Assembly (NCBI GenBank): GCA_043747815.1
Contig: JAYTOL010000262.1
Location: 1-32,000, forward strand
Origin: Deltaproteobacteria bacterium
GTDB lineage: Bacteria > Myxococcota_A > Polyangia > Polyangiales > Polyangiaceae
Reading direction: 5' to 3'
DNA: 32,000 nucleotides
A program made the translations under genes and the position numbers. This document shows, piece after piece, positions 12,160-21,773 of this stretch. Every line of letters starts with the position of its first letter. Positions within the stretch are counted from its first letter, which is position 1. The notes beneath the pieces are model-generated. The model did not search any database. It had not been told where the DNA came from and saw only the letters and a program-made list of their open reading frames with translations.

Positions 12160-13494
12160 CTACGGCTGCGCTGGCGGCAATGCGGCCCAGCGCAACGACT
12201 CGCCGTCACGGCTCGAGATCTTCTGCGTTTTCCCGCTCTTCAATGACTTGACGTACAAGCCCTGCTCTTTGCCGCGCGTCGAGAAGAAGGCGATCAGCCG
12301 CCCGTCAGGGCTGCACGCCGGATACGAGTTCGAGCCTTCGCCTTGCGTCAGTCGCGCCGTGTTGCCACCCGTTTCGTTGGAGCGCACGAGGTCCTGCGCG
12401 TTGTTGCCCACGGCGACGGCGTAGATCAGGTAGACGCCGTCCTCCGTGTCGCAGAAGGTCGGCGCCGCTGCGGAGAAGCTCGCGGGCGACACGGCCTTGC
12501 CCTCCACGTACACGCGTTGCCCAATCTTCTGACCCCCGCCGCCGATCCAGGCCAGCTTGCCCGAGGGACTGAAGACGGGGTGTGTGGCCACCTCCGTGTT
12601 GGAGACTTGCTTCATGTTGGTGCCGTTGGCGTTGCCCACGTAGACCGAGCTACCGACGTCGGTCCCCACGGCCACGGCCAGCTTCTTGAAGTCACTGCTG
12701 AAGGCGGCGCTGTAGATGGAGGTCTTGAAGGGCAGCTGCACGCCCGCGCCGTCGAGCTGCACCAGGCGAAAGGGCGAATATTTACGGCTCTGCGAATAAA
12801 ACAGCGTGCCGCCCGCTCCCCACATCGGAGCGACGCTCGTATCCGTGCCCAGCGTCAGGGAGCGGATGTTATGCCCGTCCGCGTCGACAGTATAAATACT
12901 GGGGTTTTTGCCCGACTTCGCCGAGAACGTGAGGTGGCTGGAAAATCCGCCCTCGCGCCCCGTGATGGCACCAAGCAAGGCGTCGGTGATGCGGTGCGCG
13001 GTCGGGCGCACCTGGTCCGCCTTCACTATCAGCGTCTTTTCGTAGACCGGCTCCTTACCGTGGCTCAAAAAGTAGCAGACGCCGAAGATCTTCACGCTAT
13101 CGGGGCCCTGCTTCTGAGCGGCCACCTTGATGATGACCTCCGCCCCGAGCTTGCTCCAGGCCTTGATGTCGACCGGGTCGTTGAAGCCGTACAGGCCTTC
13201 GGGCGCCTTGGCGTCATCGAGCACCTTGAACATGCCGGTGAGCTCGAAATCACGCCGCACGACTCCGCGCACGATCACGTCTTCCAGATCGGGAGAGAGC
13301 GAGGGCAACACGGCCAGCGGCGTCACGTGTTCTTGCGAGTCGCCGGTGATGAGCAACTCGCCGAGCACGCTCTCGTCGGCGGGGGGCGCCGGCGTTTGCG
13401 CGCCGGCGCTGAAGCTGAGCAGCAGAGTACACACGCCATGGGCGAGGAGCGCCCACGCACGCGTTCGCTTCGGCGCCCTCGCTGTCGGAGTCAT
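12160..13494 (-). CDS. tolB: Tol-Pal system beta-propeller protein TolB
   Basis: Signal peptide followed by a TolB N-terminal domain. Repeated propeller-blade motifs are present (HPVFSPSGKLAW, YPACSPDGRLIAFFS). The start at 13494 gives an ATGA overlap with the upstream gene, and an ATG at 13500 is also possible. Confidence 0.9.
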   Translation of the reverse strand: MTPTARAPKRTRAWALLAHGVCTLLLSFSAGAQTPAPPADESVLGELLITGDSQEHVTPLAVLPSLSPDLEDVIVRGVVRRDFELTGMFKVLDDAKAPEGLYGFNDPVDIKAWSKLGAEVIIKVAAQKQGPDSVKIFGVCYFLSHGKEPVYEKTLIVKADQVRPTAHRITDALLGAITGREGGFSSHLTFSAKSGKNPSIYTVDADGHNIRSLTLGTDTSVAPMWGAGGTLFYSQSRKYSPFRLVQLDGAGVQLPFKTSIYSAAFSSDFKKLAVAVGTDVGSSVYVGNANGTNMKQVSNTEVATHPVFSPSGKLAWIGGGGQKIGQRVYVEGKAVSPASFSAAAPTFCDTEDGVYLIYAVAVGNNAQDLVRSNETGGNTARLTQGEGSNSYPACSPDGRLIAFFSTRGKEQGLYVKSLKSGKTQKISSRDGESLRWAALPPAQP

Positions 13495-14297
13495 TTGCAT
13501 TGGTCGTTCTTTCCCTGGAACGTGGGGTGAACCACGTCATCCAGTATGTCCGGGTAGTTGGGGGGCGGAGGCGGGACTTTCTGACCCACACGCGCGTCCA
13601 TCACCCGCCGCACTCGCGCGTCGAAGATGGCGTTTCCGCTCGAGATCATGTCGTAGCTCGACACCGACCCATCGGGCGCGAGCCGTGCGTTCACGCTGGC
13701 GCGGAGGTCCCGCAGGATGGCGCAGGGGACTTCCTCCGAGGGGGAAGCGAAGCCTTGTTTGAACCAGCCGATCAGCTTCATTCGGTACAGGTCGACGGCG
13801 CGTGCCTTGAGCGGATCCTTTTCCGTTCCTTCTTCGACACCGTCGGCAGCTCCCTCTTCGGGTACGTTCGGCTCGTCTTCTTCTTCTCTCTCGACCTCGA
13901 GCACGGGCCTGTCCACCTGCTCTGCCACTGGCGCCTGTGGATCGGCCGGCTTGTCTTCGGGCTTTGGCTTTTTTTCCTGCTTGTCGGGCAGGTTTTCTGC
14001 GGTCTTCGACGCGAGCGGCGTGGGCACGTCCTTCGGCTCGACGCGCTTGACCGGGACCGGCGGCTTCCATTTGTCTGGCAGCTTGTTGGGCCGGGGTTTG
14101 CCGCCCTTTTTTAGGAGTGGCAGGTCGAGCATCGGCTTGACAGCGATCGACATCTCACGGGGCGGCGGCTCCGGCCGCGGCATCGAGCCTACCGCGTTGT
14201 GGGCCAGGAGCATGAGCACGACGAGCACGCCCTGCACCAACGCCGCGAGCGAGGTGGCGGCCCACACCTGGCCACTCGAGAACGCCCGGGTCCTCAC
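13491..14297 (-). CDS. tolA: TolA-like / TonB-family energy transducer (N-terminal TM, Pro/Lys/Glu-rich linker, TonB_C-like C-terminus)
   Basis: N-terminal TM helix (LAALVQGVLVVLMLLAH) and a long linker rich in P, K and E. Its position between tolR and tolB fits TolA. The GTG start overlaps the tolR stop (GTGA). Confidence 0.75.
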   Translation of the reverse strand: MRTRAFSSGQVWAATSLAALVQGVLVVLMLLAHNAVGSMPRPEPPPREMSIAVKPMLDLPLLKKGGKPRPNKLPDKWKPPVPVKRVEPKDVPTPLASKTAENLPDKQEKKPKPEDKPADPQAPVAEQVDRPVLEVEREEEDEPNVPEEGAADGVEEGTEKDPLKARAVDLYRMKLIGWFKQGFASPSEEVPCAILRDLRASVNARLAPDGSVSSYDMISSGNAIFDARVRRVMDARVGQKVPPPPPNYPDILDDVVHPTFQGKNDQCK

Positions 14298-14746
14298 TGC
14301 GGCGTCTCGCTCTTGCCCTGTTCTCCTTCGTCCTCGTCCGCTCCTTCCGGCTCTACGAGCAAGTTGAGCGAGTCGACCCCGCTGCGCCGCGCGGCGGCCA
14401 CGACCTCCGCCACGTCGCCGTACTTGGCGTTCTTGTCGGCTCGGATATAGAGCTCGCGCTCCTGCTGGACTCGGGCGTTTTGGCTGAAGGCATCGAAGAC
14501 GCGGCCGGTCACCTCTTCATCGCCGAACATCACCTTGCCTTCGGCGGTGACGGTGACCAACAGCCGACCGTCTTTGACGGGCGTATTGGCGGCCTGCACG
14601 TTGGGCAGGTCTATCTTGAGGCCGGTGGTGAGGAGCGGCGCCGTGACCATGAAGACCACGAGCAACACCAGCATCACGTCCACCAGCGGCGTGACGTTGA
14701 TATCGCGAAATCCCCGTCTACCCGAGCGACCCGCTTGCGCCCCCAT
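14294..14746 (-). CDS. tolR: Biopolymer transport protein TolR/ExbD
   Basis: 150 aa with the ExbD/TolR signature INVTPLVDVMLVLLVVFMV followed by a periplasmic domain. Confidence 0.9.
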   Translation of the reverse strand: MGAQAGRSGRRGFRDINVTPLVDVMLVLLVVFMVTAPLLTTGLKIDLPNVQAANTPVKDGRLLVTVTAEGKVMFGDEEVTGRVFDAFSQNARVQQERELYIRADKNAKYGDVAEVVAAARRSGVDSLNLLVEPEGADEDEGEQGKSETPQ

Positions 14747-14748
14747 GC

Positions 14749-15489
14749 CTAACCTCCGTAGCGGGGCTGTTGCGAAGGGCGCTGCGGGGCAGGATTTACG
14801 GGTGCGAGGCTGCTGCGCCGCTCGGCGGCGTCAGAGGCCAAGATCTCCACCCAGGTTTCGCTAGAGGCTTCTACCGTGGCCATCAAGTCGGTGATGCGCT
14901 GATCGATGTAGTTGTAACCGATGGTGGCTGGAATGGCAGCGACCAAGCCCACTGCCGTGGCGATCAACGCCTCACCGATCGCGGGGGCCACTACGGGCAA
15001 CGAGGCGCTGCCTTCGACCCCGATCCGCAAGAACGCATCCATGATGCCCCAGACGGTGCCGAACAGACCGATGAACGGCGCCGATGACGCGATGCTCGAC
15101 AGCGTCGGCATCAGCACTCCGGCGCGCTGCTGCTCGCTCACGATGGCGCGCTTGGCCACGCTCGCCAAGAACTCGGCGGTCAAGTTCGAGCGCGGCCGCT
15201 TCGCCATCTCCACGACGATGCGCCCGCCGGGGGCGCCTTTGTGCTGGATGCCCAGCGCGACCAAGGCGGAGGCTTCCGCCACCTCCGAAGCGTCGCGCTC
15301 GAAGCGATCCTGCGCCGCTTGCAGCCGGCGCAGTTGCATCGACTTCAAAAACCAGATCAGCCACACCGCGAACGAGGCGACGATGAGCAAGGACAGAACG
15401 ACCAGCACGACTCCCGACGCCTGGCGCACGAGCGACAACGGGTCGAGAGCGGGCGCTCCAGCGGGCGTGGGGGGAGCGAGTGCGGACAT
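14749..15489 (-). CDS. tolQ: MotA/TolQ/ExbB proton-channel protein TolQ
   Basis: 246 aa with three TM helices. Conserved segments are APFIGLFGTVWGIMDAF and EALIATAVGLVAAIPA. The stop lies 2 nt before the tolR start. Confidence 0.9.
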   Translation of the reverse strand: MSALAPPTPAGAPALDPLSLVRQASGVVLVVLSLLIVASFAVWLIWFLKSMQLRRLQAAQDRFERDASEVAEASALVALGIQHKGAPGGRIVVEMAKRPRSNLTAEFLASVAKRAIVSEQQRAGVLMPTLSSIASSAPFIGLFGTVWGIMDAFLRIGVEGSASLPVVAPAIGEALIATAVGLVAAIPATIGYNYIDQRITDLMATVEASSETWVEILASDAAERRSSLAPVNPAPQRPSQQPRYGG

Positions 15490-15606
15490 CTAACTTCTTA
15501 CCAATCGGCGCTCGTCGTTCACCTGCGACTGAGCGCCGCAGGTGAACACTGGGTAAACACGGCGCAAAAACACAGCTTTGCTTACGAGTGGGGCACGCCG
15601 GTGGCG

Positions 15607-16149
15607 TTAGTCTGCCAGGATGACGTCCACGCGCCGGTCTTCCGACCAGCCCGATTCGTCCGTGCCGCTCGAGTCCATCTCGCCGCGCGACGTCGTCTCT
15701 GCCTGGCGATCGGGCAAGCCCTGGGTCGCCAGGTACGACCTGACGTTGTCGGCGCGCTTACCGCCGAGGACCATGTTGTACTCCGCTTCACCGCGAGGAT
15801 CGGCGTGGCCTACCAGGCGCATGGTGCGGCCGCTGAGCTTACCCGTCGTAAAGCACTGAACGAGCTTGTTCAGCACGGGCTGGTCACCCTTTTGAACGCG
15901 AGCCGAGTCGTACGAGAACTTCGCTTCGGCATCGGTAATGCCGCAGGCGAGGGCGATCTCGTCGGAGACGTTGATCGTGCTCTGGCGCGGGTCGTCACCC
16001 GGTTTCTCCGGAGGCGGAGGCGGAGGCGGCTCCGGCGGCGGCGGCGCCTCTACCAGGGGCGTCGGAGCCACCGGCGGTGGTTTTGGATCGGACCCACACG
16101 CCAGAGCGGCCAATGCCGCCAGCACGTAGAAGCTACGCTGAACTGCCAT
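15607..16149 (-). CDS. pal: Peptidoglycan-associated lipoprotein (Pal, OmpA_C-like domain)
   Basis: I prefer the ATG at 16149, which has AGGAGG 9 nt upstream. It has the lipobox LAALAC|G, a Pro-rich linker and an OmpA-like domain (LVGHADPRGEAEYNMVLGGKRADNV ... RRVDVIL). Confidence 0.85.
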   Translation of the reverse strand: MAVQRSFYVLAALAALACGSDPKPPPVAPTPLVEAPPPPEPPPPPPPEKPGDDPRQSTINVSDEIALACGITDAEAKFSYDSARVQKGDQPVLNKLVQCFTTGKLSGRTMRLVGHADPRGEAEYNMVLGGKRADNVRSYLATQGLPDRQAETTSRGEMDSSGTDESGWSEDRRVDVILAD

Positions 16150-16610
16150 CTCCAGAATCCTCCTGAACACTCTCAATTAGAACAGTGACGTCAAAAAGCA
16201 CAATCGCGTCCCGCCGTTGCATACGCGTTTCGCGTTCCGCCGAGGCGAGCGCGCGGCCATGCCCGGTGGACCTTCTCCAGCGCCGTTACCTGCAGAAGCG
16301 CGAGGGGAATCACGAGCTTCCAGCCTGCGAACGACCTGGCTCGCGAGTTTATAGTACCAAAGGCCCAAGGCCGGCAAGCACACGACAATCTATCGCACGG
16401 CGACTCGGAACCGCTGCGTTTTCTCCCTCGCCGCGCCTGTCGCGAGCTGACACAGAGGTCGGATTCGGCGCTGGCGGCAGGGGAAAGGCCTCCCTTGCTG
16501 AGAGGCCGCGGCCAGAGTCGGGTTCGATGGCGTGGGCCGCAGTCGCGAAGACGACCGCGCCCAAGGCGCCGAAAGTGCCCAGGAGATGAGCGCAGAGATG
16601 AGCCACCAGG

Positions 16611-16669: not shown

Positions 16670-17113
16670 TCACGGGCGGAGCTGCTCGAGGAGCCTCCGG
16701 CTCATTTCATAGTAGGTCGAGCGGTCGTAGGGCTGGTTGAGGATGTAGTAGTCCTTGTGGCTCAGGCCCACGCAACCGAAGCAGTAGTTGCACTGGGACA
16801 TGCCCGCACAGCGCGTCAGGTACGAGCAGCCGATCGAGCTCTGCGTGTCGGTGCAGTGGTGGCAGGAGAGCAGCGCCCGCGACGCCTGGCAGTGCGATGA
16901 GTCCGTGCACTGCTCGCACTCCACGCAGTAGTGGCAGCGGAGCAGGTGCTGACAATGTCGGCAGAAGGTGCTTTGCGTGCAGCCGCTGCAGTGCTGGCAC
17001 TGGACGCAGCGGTCGTTTTCTTTCCCTGACTCGTGCGTGCGCAAGAGCTCTCGATACTGGACCTCGAACTCGTGTGCCGTCAGCACGGTGACCTCGCGAC
17101 ACGGCGCCGTCAC
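16670..17113 (-). CDS. Cys/His-rich protein with strict 3-residue Cys periodicity (putative metal-binding); family not recognised
   Basis: 147 aa with no signal peptide. It has 18 Cys at residues 36-114, all at positions divisible by 3 (CVQCQHCSGC...CRHC...CHYCVECEQC...CHHC...CNYCFGC). The start ATG overlaps the stop of the upstream gene (ATGA). Confidence 0.75.
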   Translation of the reverse strand: MTAPCREVTVLTAHEFEVQYRELLRTHESGKENDRCVQCQHCSGCTQSTFCRHCQHLLRCHYCVECEQCTDSSHCQASRALLSCHHCTDTQSSIGCSYLTRCAGMSQCNYCFGCVGLSHKDYYILNQPYDRSTYYEMSRRLLEQLRP

Positions 17114-17958
17114 GCGCCGTGATGCACCCGCATCGAGCGACGCAGTGCGCCCGCAGCGTCACGCGTGATCGGATCTTCCGCTGACTGCTCCAGGCGACGC
17201 AGGCGTTGATCCAAGACCGGGCGCTTGATGGGAGCTTCTTTCTGGAGCAGCTCCGCCATGACGAAGACGGCGTCGCGAGCCCGGTGCTCGTTCTCGTGCT
17301 CGAGCAGCTGGATCTGCACCTCTTGCCGCCTCGGAGCCACGAACTTGCCATCCCAAAGATCGTCCGCCGCCCGTGAGATGGCGCCGCGACCTTGGCTGCG
17401 GACCAAACGATCGAGCAGCTGTTGCTCGCGGTTGCCGGCTGGCGTGAGCACGCTGTCCGTCAGCTTGACGATCCGCACCGCGCGGCGCCGCACGCCCTCC
17501 GGGCGAGGTGTTTCGGACGCACCCGCCTCGGCAGCGCCTTCAGAAAAGCCATTGCTCGAGAGGCCACCATTGCCGTCGGGGTCAGCGTCGCTCGCGCGGG
17601 CACGGCTACCCTCCTCCGAGAGCTCAGCGCCGCTCACCCTGGCCAGGCTGCTGCCAAAGCCATTGGTCACGGCGTGCCCGTTGCTCTTGCCTTCGCTTTG
17701 CCCGTTTTGAGGCGAGCCCGCGGTAAAAGAGGCCGCGTCTCGCGGAGGAGCGCCAAAATGAGCTGGCCGCGCCGATGCCAGGGCGCCGTGCTTGGGCTGC
17801 GCGGAAGCCACCACGGAGTGGAAACCGTTCTTCAGCAAAGGAGAATCCGGACGCCGAGCGACGATGAGCACGGGCTCGGCCGCCGCCTTGTTGCGCGGGT
17901 TCTTCGACTTGCGGCGTTGGCGGCGCCTGCTGCTGGTTTTCTCTCGTTGTCCTTCCAT
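17110..17958 (-). CDS. Hypothetical protein: basic N-terminus, long low-complexity region, helical C-terminal roughly 110 aa
   Basis: I prefer the ATG at 17958 (MEGQREKTSSRRRQRRKSK...), which has GGAGGA 8 nt upstream. The track start at 18204 adds 82 residues with no RBS. It is coupled to the Cys-rich gene. Confidence 0.6.
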   Translation of the reverse strand: MEGQREKTSSRRRQRRKSKNPRNKAAAEPVLIVARRPDSPLLKNGFHSVVASAQPKHGALASARPAHFGAPPRDAASFTAGSPQNGQSEGKSNGHAVTNGFGSSLARVSGAELSEEGSRARASDADPDGNGGLSSNGFSEGAAEAGASETPRPEGVRRRAVRIVKLTDSVLTPAGNREQQLLDRLVRSQGRGAISRAADDLWDGKFVAPRRQEVQIQLLEHENEHRARDAVFVMAELLQKEAPIKRPVLDQRLRRLEQSAEDPITRDAAGALRRSMRVHHGA

Positions 17959-18678
17959 GATCATTTCCTCCGACGTCATGCGCCGAATCACTTTCGTTTT
18001 GGCGGCCCTGCTGGGAACCGCGACGTTGCTGCTTTGGGCCGCCGCTCTTTGCGAGCGGCGCCCCAGGTGAATCTGATGTGCCCATGTGATGTGCGACAGC
18101 GTGGCCCCGTACCCGAATGGGCCACTCTGCTGAGCGATCGCGTAATATGTAACTGGCCGCCCGTGCGCTGCCGTCGCAGGGGCTGACTCAACCGGACCAC
18201 ACATTTCTCAGCCGCATGTGTTTAGAGCGGCTCTACATAGAAATTCTGTTGGGATTGCCGTGCAGCACTTTTGCGAGTTGGCTGCGGCGGGGCGCGCTGA
18301 CGGCCGTGGACCTGCCTTGCTGCAAGACGGGGGCCCGCCAGCACCCGTGGGGCTAGACCCCGGGGTACGATTAGAGCGATGGGCGGCAAAACAGCCCCTG
18401 TCTTTGGCGGCCAGCTGCCTTCGAAGAGCATGCTGGCCCCGAGCAAATGTCCTGGCGTCGGAACGGCTGCAACGGCAAACCTCGAAGCTGCAGGGGGTCG
18501 TGAATGGAAGCGCCACGACTATTCCGAGAAGCGGCGCGGAGCCATCGCGGGCCCACCGCCGTCCAGAGCAAGCGGGCGAGTGCCGCGCACACCCAGGGCG
18601 CAGCTAGGTCCGCGCCGACCATGTCTGCGCAGCACTGACCCGCGTTGCAGTTGAGCCACACCGCGCCCGCGGCCCGTG

Positions 18679-18723
18679 GCCACATTGCCCCTCGCCACAT
18701 TGCCCCTGGCTACATTGCTCATC
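18679..18723. repeat. 3 x 15-nt tandem repeat (GCCACATTGCCCCTC / GCCACATTGCCCCTG / GCTACATTGCTCATC)
   Basis: Direct reading. Copies 1 and 2 differ at 1 nt and copy 3 is degenerate. Confidence 0.9.
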
Positions 18724-18749
18724 ACAGGGCTCTCGACGATACCGTTGGC

Positions 18750-18809
18750 GGCAACAGATTTGCTGGCGACAGGGCGGCTGGCGACAGGGCGGCAGGCGAC
18801 AGGGATATG
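18750..18809. repeat. 4 x 15-nt tandem repeat (GGCAACAGATTTGCT / GGCGACAGGGCGGCT / GGCGACAGGGCGGCA / GGCGACAGGGATATG)
   Basis: Direct reading. The two central copies differ at 1 nt. Confidence 0.9.
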
Positions 18810-19057
18810 CCGCTCATGTCACGCTGCTCACGATTACGTCGCTCATCAATCTCTTGCTCGCTGCCGGCTCGTGTCACTCGTTTAAGCCCGCCCTACCGAA
18901 AGTCAACTGCCGGTCGGCCACGCCGTCCGCCCGCGACGTGACGCGCACGTTGCCGAGAACCCGAAACCTGTCCGGGCGATCGCGGCCAAGATCGCGCTGG
19001 GAGAAAGGGGCTGCTTCACCCTGAGCTCGCCGTAGTGCTGGCCTCTGTCGCTGTGTG

Positions 19058-19098
19058 TTTCCGACGCTGTGCATTTCCGACGCTGTGCATTTCCGACG
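19058..19098. repeat. 2.6 x 16-nt tandem repeat (TTTCCGACGCTGTGCA, two perfect copies plus TTTCCGACG)
   Basis: Direct reading. The preceding GTCGCTGTGTG (19047-19057) resembles the unit tail. Confidence 0.9.
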
Positions 19099-19219
19099 TT
19101 CCGGACCTGTGAATTACCTGCGCTGGGTTCCGAAGGCGGCTTTCTGCAACCGGCTTCCTGCAGCGATGAGCTCCGCAGCCCTCGAACGATCTGGGTCGAG
19201 CCATCACTCAGCGACCTAT

Positions 19220-19294
19220 GATCCAACGCTGTTCCGATCCCAATCCTGCGATCCAACACTCTGACCCAACCGCGGTCCTCACTCAACCTGCTCC
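19220..19294. repeat. Array of five imperfect GAYCCAAC-type motifs at 13-18 nt spacing
   Basis: GATCCAACGCTGTTCC / GATCCCAATCCTGC / GATCCAACACTCT / GACCCAACCGCGGTCCTC / ACTCAACCTGCTCC. Confidence 0.7.
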
Positions 19295-19464
19295 GAACGG
19301 CCTTACGTTGAAACCACGGCTTCGCACGCACCGCCGCCGACGACTTGGTTTGTGCCGCGAGCCATTCCGCTGATCGCCACATCCTGCCCTCGAGCGACCC
19401 CGGAGCGGCTGAAGCAGCTCGCGCGGACGTTGCCGTTGCAGCACTGAGCCTTCAACTCCCGATT

Positions 19465-19488
19465 CGGATCATGATGCGGATCATTTTG
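19465..19488. repeat. 2 x 12-nt tandem repeat (CGGATCATGATG / CGGATCATTTTG)
   Basis: Direct reading. Confidence 0.8.
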
Positions 19489-19646
19489 ATACGAGTGACC
19501 GCCGGCGTTCGGCGTTAGAGGCAAATGGTTAGGGCGTTCTGTAGCCGAATGCACACCGAGCCCATGCAGGGGCAGCCACACAGAGTCTCCGGCGCTTGCT
19601 GCGCCTAAGGCAGTTGTGGAGCAGTTCACCGCCTGCACCGACGTTG

Positions 19647-19694
19647 CTTTCAACGGGTTCGCCTTTCAACCGGTTCTACGTGCAACGGGGTATA
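19647..19694. repeat. 3 x 16-nt tandem repeat (CTTTCAACGGGTTCGC / CTTTCAACCGGTTCTA / CGTGCAACGGGGTATA)
   Basis: Direct reading. The third copy is degenerate. Confidence 0.75.
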
Positions 19695-19735
19695 CTTGCG
19701 ACGACGTGCCGGGAGATGTGCCCGCTCCGCGGTAC

Positions 19736-19765
19736 CTCTCAAACCAACATCTCTCAAACCACCCC
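19736..19765. repeat. 2 x 15-nt tandem repeat (CTCTCAAACCAACAT / CTCTCAAACCACCCC)
   Basis: Direct reading. Confidence 0.85.
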
Positions 19766-20571
19766 GGTGATGAACCGAGGCACTGCGCAGCGCTCTTGAA
19801 CAAGACGGCCTTGAACTAAACAGGTTCGTATTCGACGGACGCCCCGCCACGACTCATCGTCCTGACCTATCAGGAGCGTCCTAGTACCTGGAGACGTAAT
19901 AGCTGGCGACTGGAAACCGAGCGCCCGAGGTAGGCCGGACTAGTAGTAGCCGGGGTAAGCAACCTCGAGATCGCCACCGCTCATTAACCTGAGATGGCCC
20001 AGGGGCATAGCGCAAAAATCTGAGCGCGCCCAGCCCTTACAGTAGATAGCACACCGGTTTCGGGGATGCGGAATAAAAATCTGAAGGCTTTGGCTTTTTG
20101 CTCTGCGCAAGCAGCGTGACCTCGGGCTCGTTCACGCTGGTTCTCGACGAACCGTGTCGGAGAAACTTTTTGGAACGTCGTTCGGCGGCTTCAGACACGT
20201 GTGCTCCCGGAGTGTTCGTAGCAGCATGATCGTACTGTCTCGGATCGCTCGAGAATTTTCACGCGCGCAATGGCTTTGCTCCTGGGATTGAGCGCGCGTT
20301 TGCCCGTTGGTGGGTGGGGGCGGAAGCGTGAGCGCTGACGTCCGTTCGCCGTCGCGACGCGATGGCATGCGCCGAGATTTGTGGGGGCGGCGGGTGCGAT
20401 CTCCGAATGGGGTCGCCTCCTCGATTGTACAGAAGTGCTGAGCACGTCAATGAGAGGCCTCTCGCCTCAGCGGCTGGGGCCCGGGTGAACCTGGTACGAA
20501 CCGAGGACACCGCAGCAGGTGGAGTGAGCTTTGGGCTGCGAAAGACCAGCGCTCCGCCCCGCTCTGGGAAC

Positions 20572-20601
20572 GAGTCGAGGCGCCGGGAGTCGAGGCGCCG
20601 C
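20572..20601. repeat. 2 x 15-nt tandem repeat (GAGTCGAGGCGCCGG / GAGTCGAGGCGCCGC)
   Basis: Direct reading, with 14 of 15 identical. Confidence 0.9.
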
Positions 20602-20731
20602 CCGCCGTAGAAGCTGCCGTGGCCTTCCGGGGCACGCTTGCCTTCCCGAGCCGCTCGGGCGCGACACGCGGTTTGGGCCAGCCCCTGCCGTCAGGTCAAT
20701 GCCTCCGGAATTTTGCAGGCCGCGGCCACTT

Positions 20732-20746
20732 TGGCAGGCGGCTTGC
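20732..20746 (+). promoter_or_regulatory. Sigma54-type -24/-12 promoter-like element (TGGCAG-N5-TTGC) upstream of ilvE
   Basis: It matches the TGGCAC-N5-TTGC consensus at the GG and GC dinucleotides with correct spacing. It lies about 90 nt upstream of the ilvE ATG. It is a single-motif match only. Confidence 0.25.
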
Positions 20747-20837
20747 GTGACCGTTGGCCTGCGAAGAGTAAAGTAGAGCGGCGCACGGCAGGAACAAACG
20801 CCTCCCTCGAGAGAGCGCGACAGGTTGGAGACGCAGC

Positions 20838-21773
20838 ATGGCAGAATATGGCTCGCGCATCTGGTTGGACGGAAACATAGTCGACCGCGAAACGGCCGGG
20901 CATGTCCCGTTGCTCACCCATACGCTGCACTATGGCGTCGGGGCGTTCGAGGGTATCCGCGCCTACCGCCGATCGGGCGGAGAGACGATGATTTTTCGGC
21001 TCGCGGATCACGTGCGGCGGCTGTTCGACTCTTGCCGCCTGGTGATGATCGAGCCCACGGTCACAGCGGAGCAGGTCTGCCAAGGTTGTGTGGACGTGCT
21101 GCGTCACAATCAGCTCGCGGCCGGGTATCTGCGCCCGCTCGTCATCCTCGGTGAGGGTGCCATGGGCTTATTTCCACAAGGTAACCCGGTCCACACCTAT
21201 ATCGCCGCCTGGGCCTGGGGTGCCTACTTGGGGCAAGACGCGCTGGAGAAGGGCATCGCCTGCAAGGTCTCGTCTTATGCGCGGCCGCATCTCAATGTAG
21301 GCTTTTCTCGCGCCAAGCTGACCGGTCAATACATCGTCTCCGTGATGGCCAAGCGAGAGGTAAAGCTCGCGGGTTATGATGAAGCCATCTTGCTCGATCT
21401 GAATGGCATGGTGGCGGAAGGTTCAGGAGAGAACATCTTCATCGTAAAAGGAGGGCGGCTGATCACGCCGCCGCTCGGCTCCTCCATCCTCGCTGGCATC
21501 ACGCGTGACACCGTGATCACCTTGGCGCGTGAAGAGGGCATTCTCGTGGTGGAACAGGGCTTCCCGCGGGACGACCTGCTGCTCGCCGATGAAGCCTTCC
21601 TCACCGGTACGGCCGCGGAGATCACGCCCGTGCGAGAGGTGGACGATCGGAAGATTGGCGACGGCGGCGTGGGGCCCGTGACGCGGCTGCTGCAGGAGCG
21701 CTACTTCGCGCTGGTGCGTGGAGCGCGTCAAGATCACCCCGAATGGCTGACCCTGGTGAGCGCTGGGGTTTGA
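20838..21773 (+). CDS. ilvE: Branched-chain amino acid aminotransferase (class IV PLP enzyme)
   Basis: 311 aa with conserved segments HYGVGAFEGIRAY, AEGSGENIFIVKGG and ILAGITRD. GGAG lies upstream of the ATG. Confidence 0.92.
   Translation: MAEYGSRIWLDGNIVDRETAGHVPLLTHTLHYGVGAFEGIRAYRRSGGETMIFRLADHVRRLFDSCRLVMIEPTVTAEQVCQGCVDVLRHNQLAAGYLRPLVILGEGAMGLFPQGNPVHTYIAAWAWGAYLGQDALEKGIACKVSSYARPHLNVGFSRAKLTGQYIVSVMAKREVKLAGYDEAILLDLNGMVAEGSGENIFIVKGGRLITPPLGSSILAGITRDTVITLAREEGILVVEQGFPRDDLLLADEAFLTGTAAEITPVREVDDRKIGDGGVGPVTRLLQERYFALVRGARQDHPEWLTLVSAGV

Follow-up and report, generated by a model that had tools for sequence, protein, structure and literature searches.

The 15-nt periodicity found upstream of ilvE in this Polyangiaceae genome most probably stems from ordinary short tandem duplications. 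We put at about 0.8 the probability that positions 18672-18813 are non-coding and consist of two adjoining minisatellite-type arrays, which arose by tandem duplication and slippage and were later eroded. Positions are those of the window, the whole 32,000-nt stretch of DNA analysed here. The reading draws on direct observation of how the arrays are built, of a region that lacks both coding signal and homologues, of a surrounding spacer that is not conserved, and of the spectrum of tandem-repeat periods across the genome. The two arrays are as follows.

18672-18723, no strand assigned: array A, about 3.4 head-to-tail copies of the 15-nt unit GCCACATTGCCCCTC
18724-18813, no strand assigned: array B, six 15-nt units of the ACAGGGCGGCTGGCG type, two of them nearly identical

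The first-pass annotation had described a 15-nt periodicity across about 14 units at 18679-18888, and the fourteen 15-mers that it quoted agree with the actual sequence. Autocorrelation against dinucleotide-preserving shuffles gave a significant 15-nt peak over the same positions (lag-15 identity of 0.50, z = 7.35); in the shuffles, the maximum z across all lags has a 99th percentile of approximately 3.4-3.6. The periodicity is confined to about nine units. Positions 18672-18813 reach z = 8.7 at lag 15 against dinucleotide shuffles, but the last five of the annotated units (units 10-14, 18814-18888) reach only z = 1.4-1.5, which is not significant and is exceeded by other lags. These last units fall outside the arrays. 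Units 4-6 taken alone give z = 3.5 at lag 15, and the spacer without 18672-18813 gives z = 2.8, under the family-wise threshold. The periodic signal is thus far beyond chance, and it ends at 18813.

Array A was recovered by TRF at 18679-18718 (unit GCCACATTGCCCCTC, period 15, 2.7 copies, 92% matches). A repeat-family search (family D3) placed the start of the first copy at 18672, and the GTG at 18676 sits within the repeat. Units 1-3 form one family with a mutual identity of 11-14/15 in a unit-by-unit identity matrix, the third full copy being diverged (11-12/15). TRF recovered array B at 18762-18804 (unit GCTGGCGACAGGGCG, period 15, 2.9 copies, 96% matches); this near-identical core is accompanied by decayed outer units at 18724, 18739, 18754 and 18799. 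Identities of units 4-9 to the B consensus are 10, 7, 11, 15, 14 and 6 out of 15, against a mean of 3.98/15 for random 15-mers of the spacer. Units 4, 6, 7 and 8 (10-15/15) belong to family B, including units 4 (10/15) and 6 (11/15), since a match of at least 10 has a chance of 0.002; units 5 (7/15) and 9 (6/15) are weak matches. The B unit also has a sub-period of 7/8 nt, GGCGNCNG, seen in the TRF rows at periods 7 and 8.

Neither unit was found elsewhere as a homologous copy. A blastn search of the spacer against its own genome returned the spacer itself and a single 40-nt GC-rich match of 85% identity in a coding Ala/Pro-rich stretch, and an exact-pattern search for the A-unit dimer found no match across a collection of genome contigs that may omit the window's own genome. 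Matches to the B unit in G005:C21 (same genus) and in G000:C134 (from the genome of the window) were considered as homologues and rejected: they proved to be a low-complexity array rich in GC and a stretch of Ala/Pro-rich coding sequence.

It had been argued in the first-pass annotation that the units stay phase-locked in one register although their sequence changes, and that slippage cannot explain a register shared across unit families. This argument does not hold. Arrays A and B adjoin at 18723/18724. A common period of 15 is enough to hold both in one register under 15-nt cutting, as it would be for any pair of adjoining arrays with that period. The shared register is therefore uninformative in itself, and only the common period of two neighbouring arrays needs explaining. 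The units themselves are not aligned in that register, where the A and B consensus sequences match at 3/15 positions, below the background of 3.98. Their best match is 9-10/15 with B rotated by 12 nt, a 3-nt offset. If the A and B units are related at all, they are therefore separated by a 3-nt shift, and the match at this offset may indicate a common origin of A and B rather than independent duplications.

Under the preferred reading, a 15-nt segment would have been duplicated in tandem, separately for each array. The copies would then expand and contract through slipped-strand mispairing at replication, with point mutations eroding the outer copies while ongoing slippage would keep the inner copies alike. 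The near-identical cores, the decayed edges and the 7/8-nt sub-period of B fit this account. The arrays would be neutral, lying in a fast-evolving and apparently unconstrained spacer that collects duplications. Contigs from the Logan collection provide a further view of the locus. The main contig of two runs from a single sediment-metagenome study (depth of approximately 13-14) is identical to the window, and a 45-nt contig of depth 3.3 with three differing letters covers 18761-18799. A length of 45 nt is that of a cycle of fifteen k-mers at k = 31. Read from its length, this contig is a weak hint of ongoing change: it may represent a minor allele in which perfect B copies are more numerous (three or more). 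The contigs of the same two runs also break at a 16-nt array downstream (19049-19098), where extra contigs of 46 and 37 nt (depths 9.9 and 4) are as expected of a repeat cycle and are possibly copy-number variants.

A common period of 15 nt needs no protein repeat, because the duplication lengths of this genome (G000) peak at 13-16 nt, with 15 the commonest. TRF detected 1340 merged arrays in the whole genome, of which 345 have period 15, the commonest period, with unrelated units and up to 10 copies; these array counts and copy numbers are lower bounds. Examples of period-15 arrays lie at C169:16482-16632, C25:42174-42305, C265:26510-26706 and C199:28278-28819. Exact tandem duplications of at least two copies number 61 at 12 nt, 40 at 14 nt, 247 at 15 nt, 22 at 16 nt and 67 at 18 nt. 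The genome-wide spike at 15 nt was considered as a coding-independent feature and rejected as such, most of these arrays lying in long ORFs with atypical codon usage. Within frames of at least 1200 nt, TRF arrays number 196 at period 15, 82 at 18, 73 at 21 and 35 at 12, and periods that are not multiples of three are rare (p15 0.34). Arrays without a spanning frame of at least 450 nt number 13, 16, 11 and 13 at periods 13, 14, 15 and 16 (p15 0.11). A flank-only criterion, by which neither flank has codon bias and no frame is open through both flanks, gives 10, 9, 21, 12 and 4 arrays at periods 13 to 17 (p15 0.24), and the exact duplications selected in this way number 18 at 15 nt versus 4-8 each at 13, 14, 16 and 17 nt. 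Strictly non-coding DNA thus has a 2-3-fold excess of exactly 15 nt by the flank-only criterion (Poisson P = 3e-4) and none by the spanning-frame criterion, and periods 12 and 18 are not raised alongside 15. The mode of short-duplication lengths is 13-16 nt, and the in-frame requirement makes 15 dominant within genes. Beyond this, exactly 15 nt may be intrinsically favoured, between one-fold and three-fold, and such a sharp preferred length is not explained by a simple slippage model.

The long spacer that holds the arrays upstream of ilvE has the following features and neighbours.

12160-13500, minus strand: tolB, Tol-Pal cluster (12160-16176)
13491-14297, minus strand: TonB_2/TolA-like gene, Tol-Pal cluster
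14294-14746, minus strand: tolR, Tol-Pal cluster
14749-15489, minus strand: tolQ, Tol-Pal cluster
15607-16176, minus strand: Pal-like OmpA-family gene, Tol-Pal cluster
17110-18204, minus strand: ORF of 364 aa, no Pfam family
18032-20861: gap of 2830 nt free of coding signal, from the coding-signal mask
18205-20837, no strand assigned: non-coding spacer between the minus-strand gene at 17110-18204 and ilvE
19049-19098, no strand assigned: 16-nt tandem array, CGCTGTGCATTTCCGA, 3.1 copies (TRF, repeat family D2)
19461-19484, no strand assigned: 12-nt tandem duplication, 2 copies (TRF, score 41)
19647-19680: weaker 16-nt duplication, read by eye
19735-19765: weaker 15-nt duplication, read by eye
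20572-20600, no strand assigned: 15-nt tandem duplication, GAGTCGAGGCGCCGG, 1.9 perfect copies (TRF, repeat family D6), unrelated to A and B
20838-21773, plus strand: ilvE (Pfam Aminotran_4)

The 2830-nt gap is one of six gaps of at least 2.5 kb without coding signal in the 10-Mb genome. Arrays A and B included, the 2.6-kb spacer holds seven tandem duplications (periods 15, 15, 16, 12, 16, 15 and 15); that four of the seven have period 15 is not significant given a p15 of 0.24 (P = 0.065). The density of arrays is approximately six times the non-coding average (four arrays scoring at least 50 in 2.8 kb vs 0.24 per kb), which is not predicted by neutrality alone. On the far side of the spacer from ilvE, the ends of the 364-aa minus-strand ORF are kept in relatives (17110-17500 and 17790-17987, 75-81% DNA identity, positive codon log-odds) and its middle (17500-17790) cannot be aligned to them. 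Either a rapidly evolving linker within a gene or a true start near 17990 could explain the pattern.

Named relatives of its ilvE indicate that the window stems from an uncultured myxobacterium of Polyangiaceae-like type. The same position was compared in four close same-genus genomes of uncultured Polyangiaceae-like Myxococcota (G013, G001, G006 and G008). The flanks are syntenic on both sides in all four and align at 75-82%. Window positions 17987-20004 cannot be aligned to any of the four, and this interval measures 2.0 kb here vs 0.9-1.3 kb there. The extra 1 kb of the present genome was searched for mobile-element boundaries; it showed nothing beyond short inverted and direct repeats of the kind expected by chance, and this origin was rejected. 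A long spacer is nevertheless kept at the same position in the four genomes and also in G005 and G011. Short tandem repeats are also present in the spacers of the relatives, 5-12 per spacer; their periods range over 9-20 nt, their units are unrelated, and neither the A nor the B unit occurs in these spacers. Periods of 10, 11, 13, 14, 16 and 17 nt in these spacers are not multiples of three and therefore cannot be codon repeats. The position is a long-lived, fast-changing non-coding spacer that repeatedly gains short tandem duplications.

Only one part of the spacer is conserved in the four same-genus genomes, an element of approximately 100 nt at 20004-20106 with 77-84% identity. Its alignment comprises 181 columns, covering approximately 160 nt around the element, of which 56 are invariant (core GAGCRCGCCCAGCCC...TAGATAGCACACC...GGGATGCGGAATAAAAAT), and it lies at a variable distance of about 275-800 nt upstream of ilvE. 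A six-frame comparison of the spacers found no match beyond this element, which matched on both strands and in several frames and is therefore conserved at the DNA level. Rfam returned no match to the element and neither strand showed covariation, which makes a putative DNA-level regulatory site more likely than a structured RNA.

Coding tests across the arrays bear directly on the suggestion, made in the first-pass annotation, that the periodicity could be the relic of a pentapeptide-repeat-type gene. The translation given there for the plus frame that starts at GTG 18676 is correct (ATLPL ATLPL ATLLI...), and the hand-counted third-position GC was close to the mark, with a computed value of 0.61 vs 0.75 for ilvE and 0.85 for tolB. 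Across the three codon positions, GC is 0.63/0.57/0.61 in the ORF at 18676-18885 and 0.68/0.45/0.75 in ilvE. With a codon table derived from 1296 long ORFs of the same genome, codon log-odds are -0.38 per codon for the ORF and +0.30 for ilvE. A GC frame plot has no codon-position signal from approximately 18030 to 20860, though the third-position signal is strong in the Tol-Pal genes and ilvE. The statement that every frame is closed within about 70 codons is roughly right: ORFs of 69 aa and 98 aa span the arrays, and the longest stop-to-stop frame spanning them is 414 nt. No match at E <=10 was returned by hmmscan against Pfam-A for six ORFs over the arrays on both strands, the pentapeptide-repeat profile included. 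A search of 5.8 billion proteins of 37-121 residues returned no homologue for the product of the 69-aa frame, nor did six-frame searches of 17 same-genus genomes. Six-frame searches of 60 same-family genomes gave just two chance-level matches (per-genome E of 0.003 and 0.01), so that none of these 77 related genomes yielded a homologue. Nor was a paralogue of the spacer recovered from the 10 Mb of its own genome, either as DNA or as protein.

Searches for RNA and transcription signals were also negative. Rfam gave no match in the whole window at gathering thresholds, nor in the spacer at E <=1, and a tRNA/tmRNA scan found nothing. A promoter scan found no sigma-70-like promoter, and terminator-like sites occurred at the level of shuffles. 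C-rich copies of A are paired with G-rich copies of B in the minimum-free-energy structure, but the folding energy does not stand out from that of shuffled sequences (z = -1.2 and -0.2 for the two strands).

These results can be set against three other explanations of the arrays. The relic of a coding gene with a five-residue repeat, of the pentapeptide or another type, would carry a 15-nt period that was fixed under translation and outlived the gene. It would account for a period that is a multiple of three, in a genome where period-15 arrays lie mostly in long ORFs, and for the superficial likeness of ATLPL ATLPL ATLLI to A(D/N)LXX; the 3-nt offset between A and B, if they are homologous, would also keep the reading frame, as one offset in three does by chance. 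Against this stand the missing Pfam match, the lack of coding statistics in every frame, the failure to find a homologue in the protein database or in the related genomes, and orthologous spacers that are also non-coding and without protein-level similarity. Other arrays in the same spacer have periods of 16 nt, which is not divisible by three, and 12 nt, and the near-perfect copies are young, yet any surrounding coding signal is wholly gone. The finding that 12 and 18 are not raised with 15 in strictly non-coding DNA counts against coding relics as a general source of such arrays. A relic is therefore highly improbable here. Also hard to sustain is a product expressed today, whether a small repeat protein from the 69-aa or 98-aa ORF or a structured non-coding RNA. 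Open frames do cross the arrays and A can pair with B, but negative codon log-odds, flat GC3 and the want of homologues speak against a protein, folding at shuffle level and the empty Rfam search speak against an RNA, and we consider such a product extremely unlikely.

A functional DNA element is the remaining alternative: either repeated binding sites of the operator or iteron kind, or a contingency locus that tunes the spacing or topology of divergent promoters for ilvE and the minus-strand gene. The arrays do lie within a divergent intergenic region, the long spacer is retained in the four relatives as well as in G005 and G011, and the arrays are crowded approximately sixfold. However, the units are unrelated to the spacers of the relatives and to the rest of the genome, the A and B units differ, so that one protein could not read both, and the only conserved piece of the spacer lies elsewhere, at 20004-20106. 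The arrays are also approximately 2 kb from the start of ilvE, and no sigma-70-like promoter was detected. Such an element is very unlikely. The array density, the kept long spacer and the length mode neither demand a function of the arrays nor exclude one. The first-pass annotation had offered a DNA-level periodic element as its other possibility. This was right in kind, but the element "of unknown function" is explained as ordinary short tandem duplication; the protein-relic reading is unsupported.

Bacterial minisatellites and VNTR loci are short tandem repeats of approximately 10-100 nt that are made and resized by slipped-strand mispairing and are used in MLVA typing. The arrays described here resemble them in being head-to-tail, intergenic and of few copies, with a unit of 15-16 nt and a significant period (z = 8.7), as well as in their near-identical inner copies, decayed edges and units that are unrelated between loci and species. 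They differ from typical loci of this class in that several unrelated arrays crowd a single spacer whose length of 2.6-2.8 kb is unusually great for bacteria. The likeness to pentapeptide-repeat proteins (PF00805) is limited to the five-codon period and a mid-position Leu in a few units of one frame. Unlike genes for such proteins, the arrays have no profile match, coding signature, gene-length open frame or homologues, and they comprise only about eight units of two unrelated sequence types. As membership in this family would entail a tandem A(D/N)LXX profile match and a coding frame or recognisable pseudogene, the hmmscan result (Pfam-A, six ORFs, E <=10), together with the GC3 of 0.61, the log-odds of -0.38 and the maximum spanning frame of 414 nt, places the arrays outside it.

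Other classes of repeat also fit poorly. An iteron or operator array is not indicated, as the A and B units differ and neither occurs in the spacers of the relatives. Dispersed repeats of the REP or MITE type are not indicated either, as the own-genome blastn search of the spacer gave no further copies, and the units are contiguous, with no spacers between them as in a CRISPR array. In-frame tandem duplications in prokaryote genes have repeat periods in multiples of three (bioRxiv 10.1101/309039). The same genome is strongly enriched in arrays of periods 15, 18 and 21 within long ORFs, in line with that pattern; arrays A and B, unlike these, lie outside any gene, and their period of 15 comes from the same length spectrum without the frame filter. 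Adjacent arrays that share a period, even one that is a multiple of three, are thus no evidence of a past protein repeat when the duplication lengths of the genome peak there. The ilvE-upstream pair shows no sign of function and is of little importance by itself.

The duplication tendency differs between lineages. Exact duplications in 500 kb scanned from G005 (same genus) number 11 at 15 nt, 3 at 12 nt and 3 at 18 nt, and 300 kb from G011 (same genus) contain none at 15 nt and 4 at 18 nt. Within the same family, 400 kb from G078 contain 8 at 15 nt, 8 at 18 nt and 6 at 24 nt, and 400 kb from G083 none at 15 nt. Loci outside Polyangiaceae, Labilithrix, Kofleriaceae (629 kb) contain none at 15 nt and 8 at 12 nt. 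Tandem arrays of 15 nt are unusually numerous in G000 (about 345 in 10 Mb) and in some of its close relatives; the pattern is common to G000 and G005 and is not seen in G011 or G083. A full-text literature search returned no report of a 15-nt preference in myxobacteria. It is conceivable, although we regard it as a tentative and rather doubtful proposal, that a clade-specific mutational process with a preferred duplication length (mode of 13-16 nt, with a possible sharp extra at 15) operates in G000 and G005 and in the spacers of G013, G001, G006 and G008. Such a process, if real, would fill unconstrained spacers with unrelated mini-arrays, the locus studied here being one footprint, and would insert five-residue repeats in hundreds of proteins. 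An intrinsic preference for 15 nt, if true, would suggest that replication or repair uses a molecular ruler and would be a steady source of pentapeptide insertions.

Several further observations concern the arrays of G000 at large. Most of its period-15 arrays lie in long ORFs, which corresponds to hundreds of proteins with recent five-residue tandem insertions. A second mostly non-coding island at C197:183101-185644 holds arrays of period 15/30 (6.9 copies), 15, 15 and 17 (8.3 copies); it is like the ilvE-upstream spacer in kind, although the two sequences show no similarity. Another contig opens with a perfect array of 6.3 copies of a 15-nt unit (C163:1-95), and tandem arrays probably end some of the contigs of the assembly.
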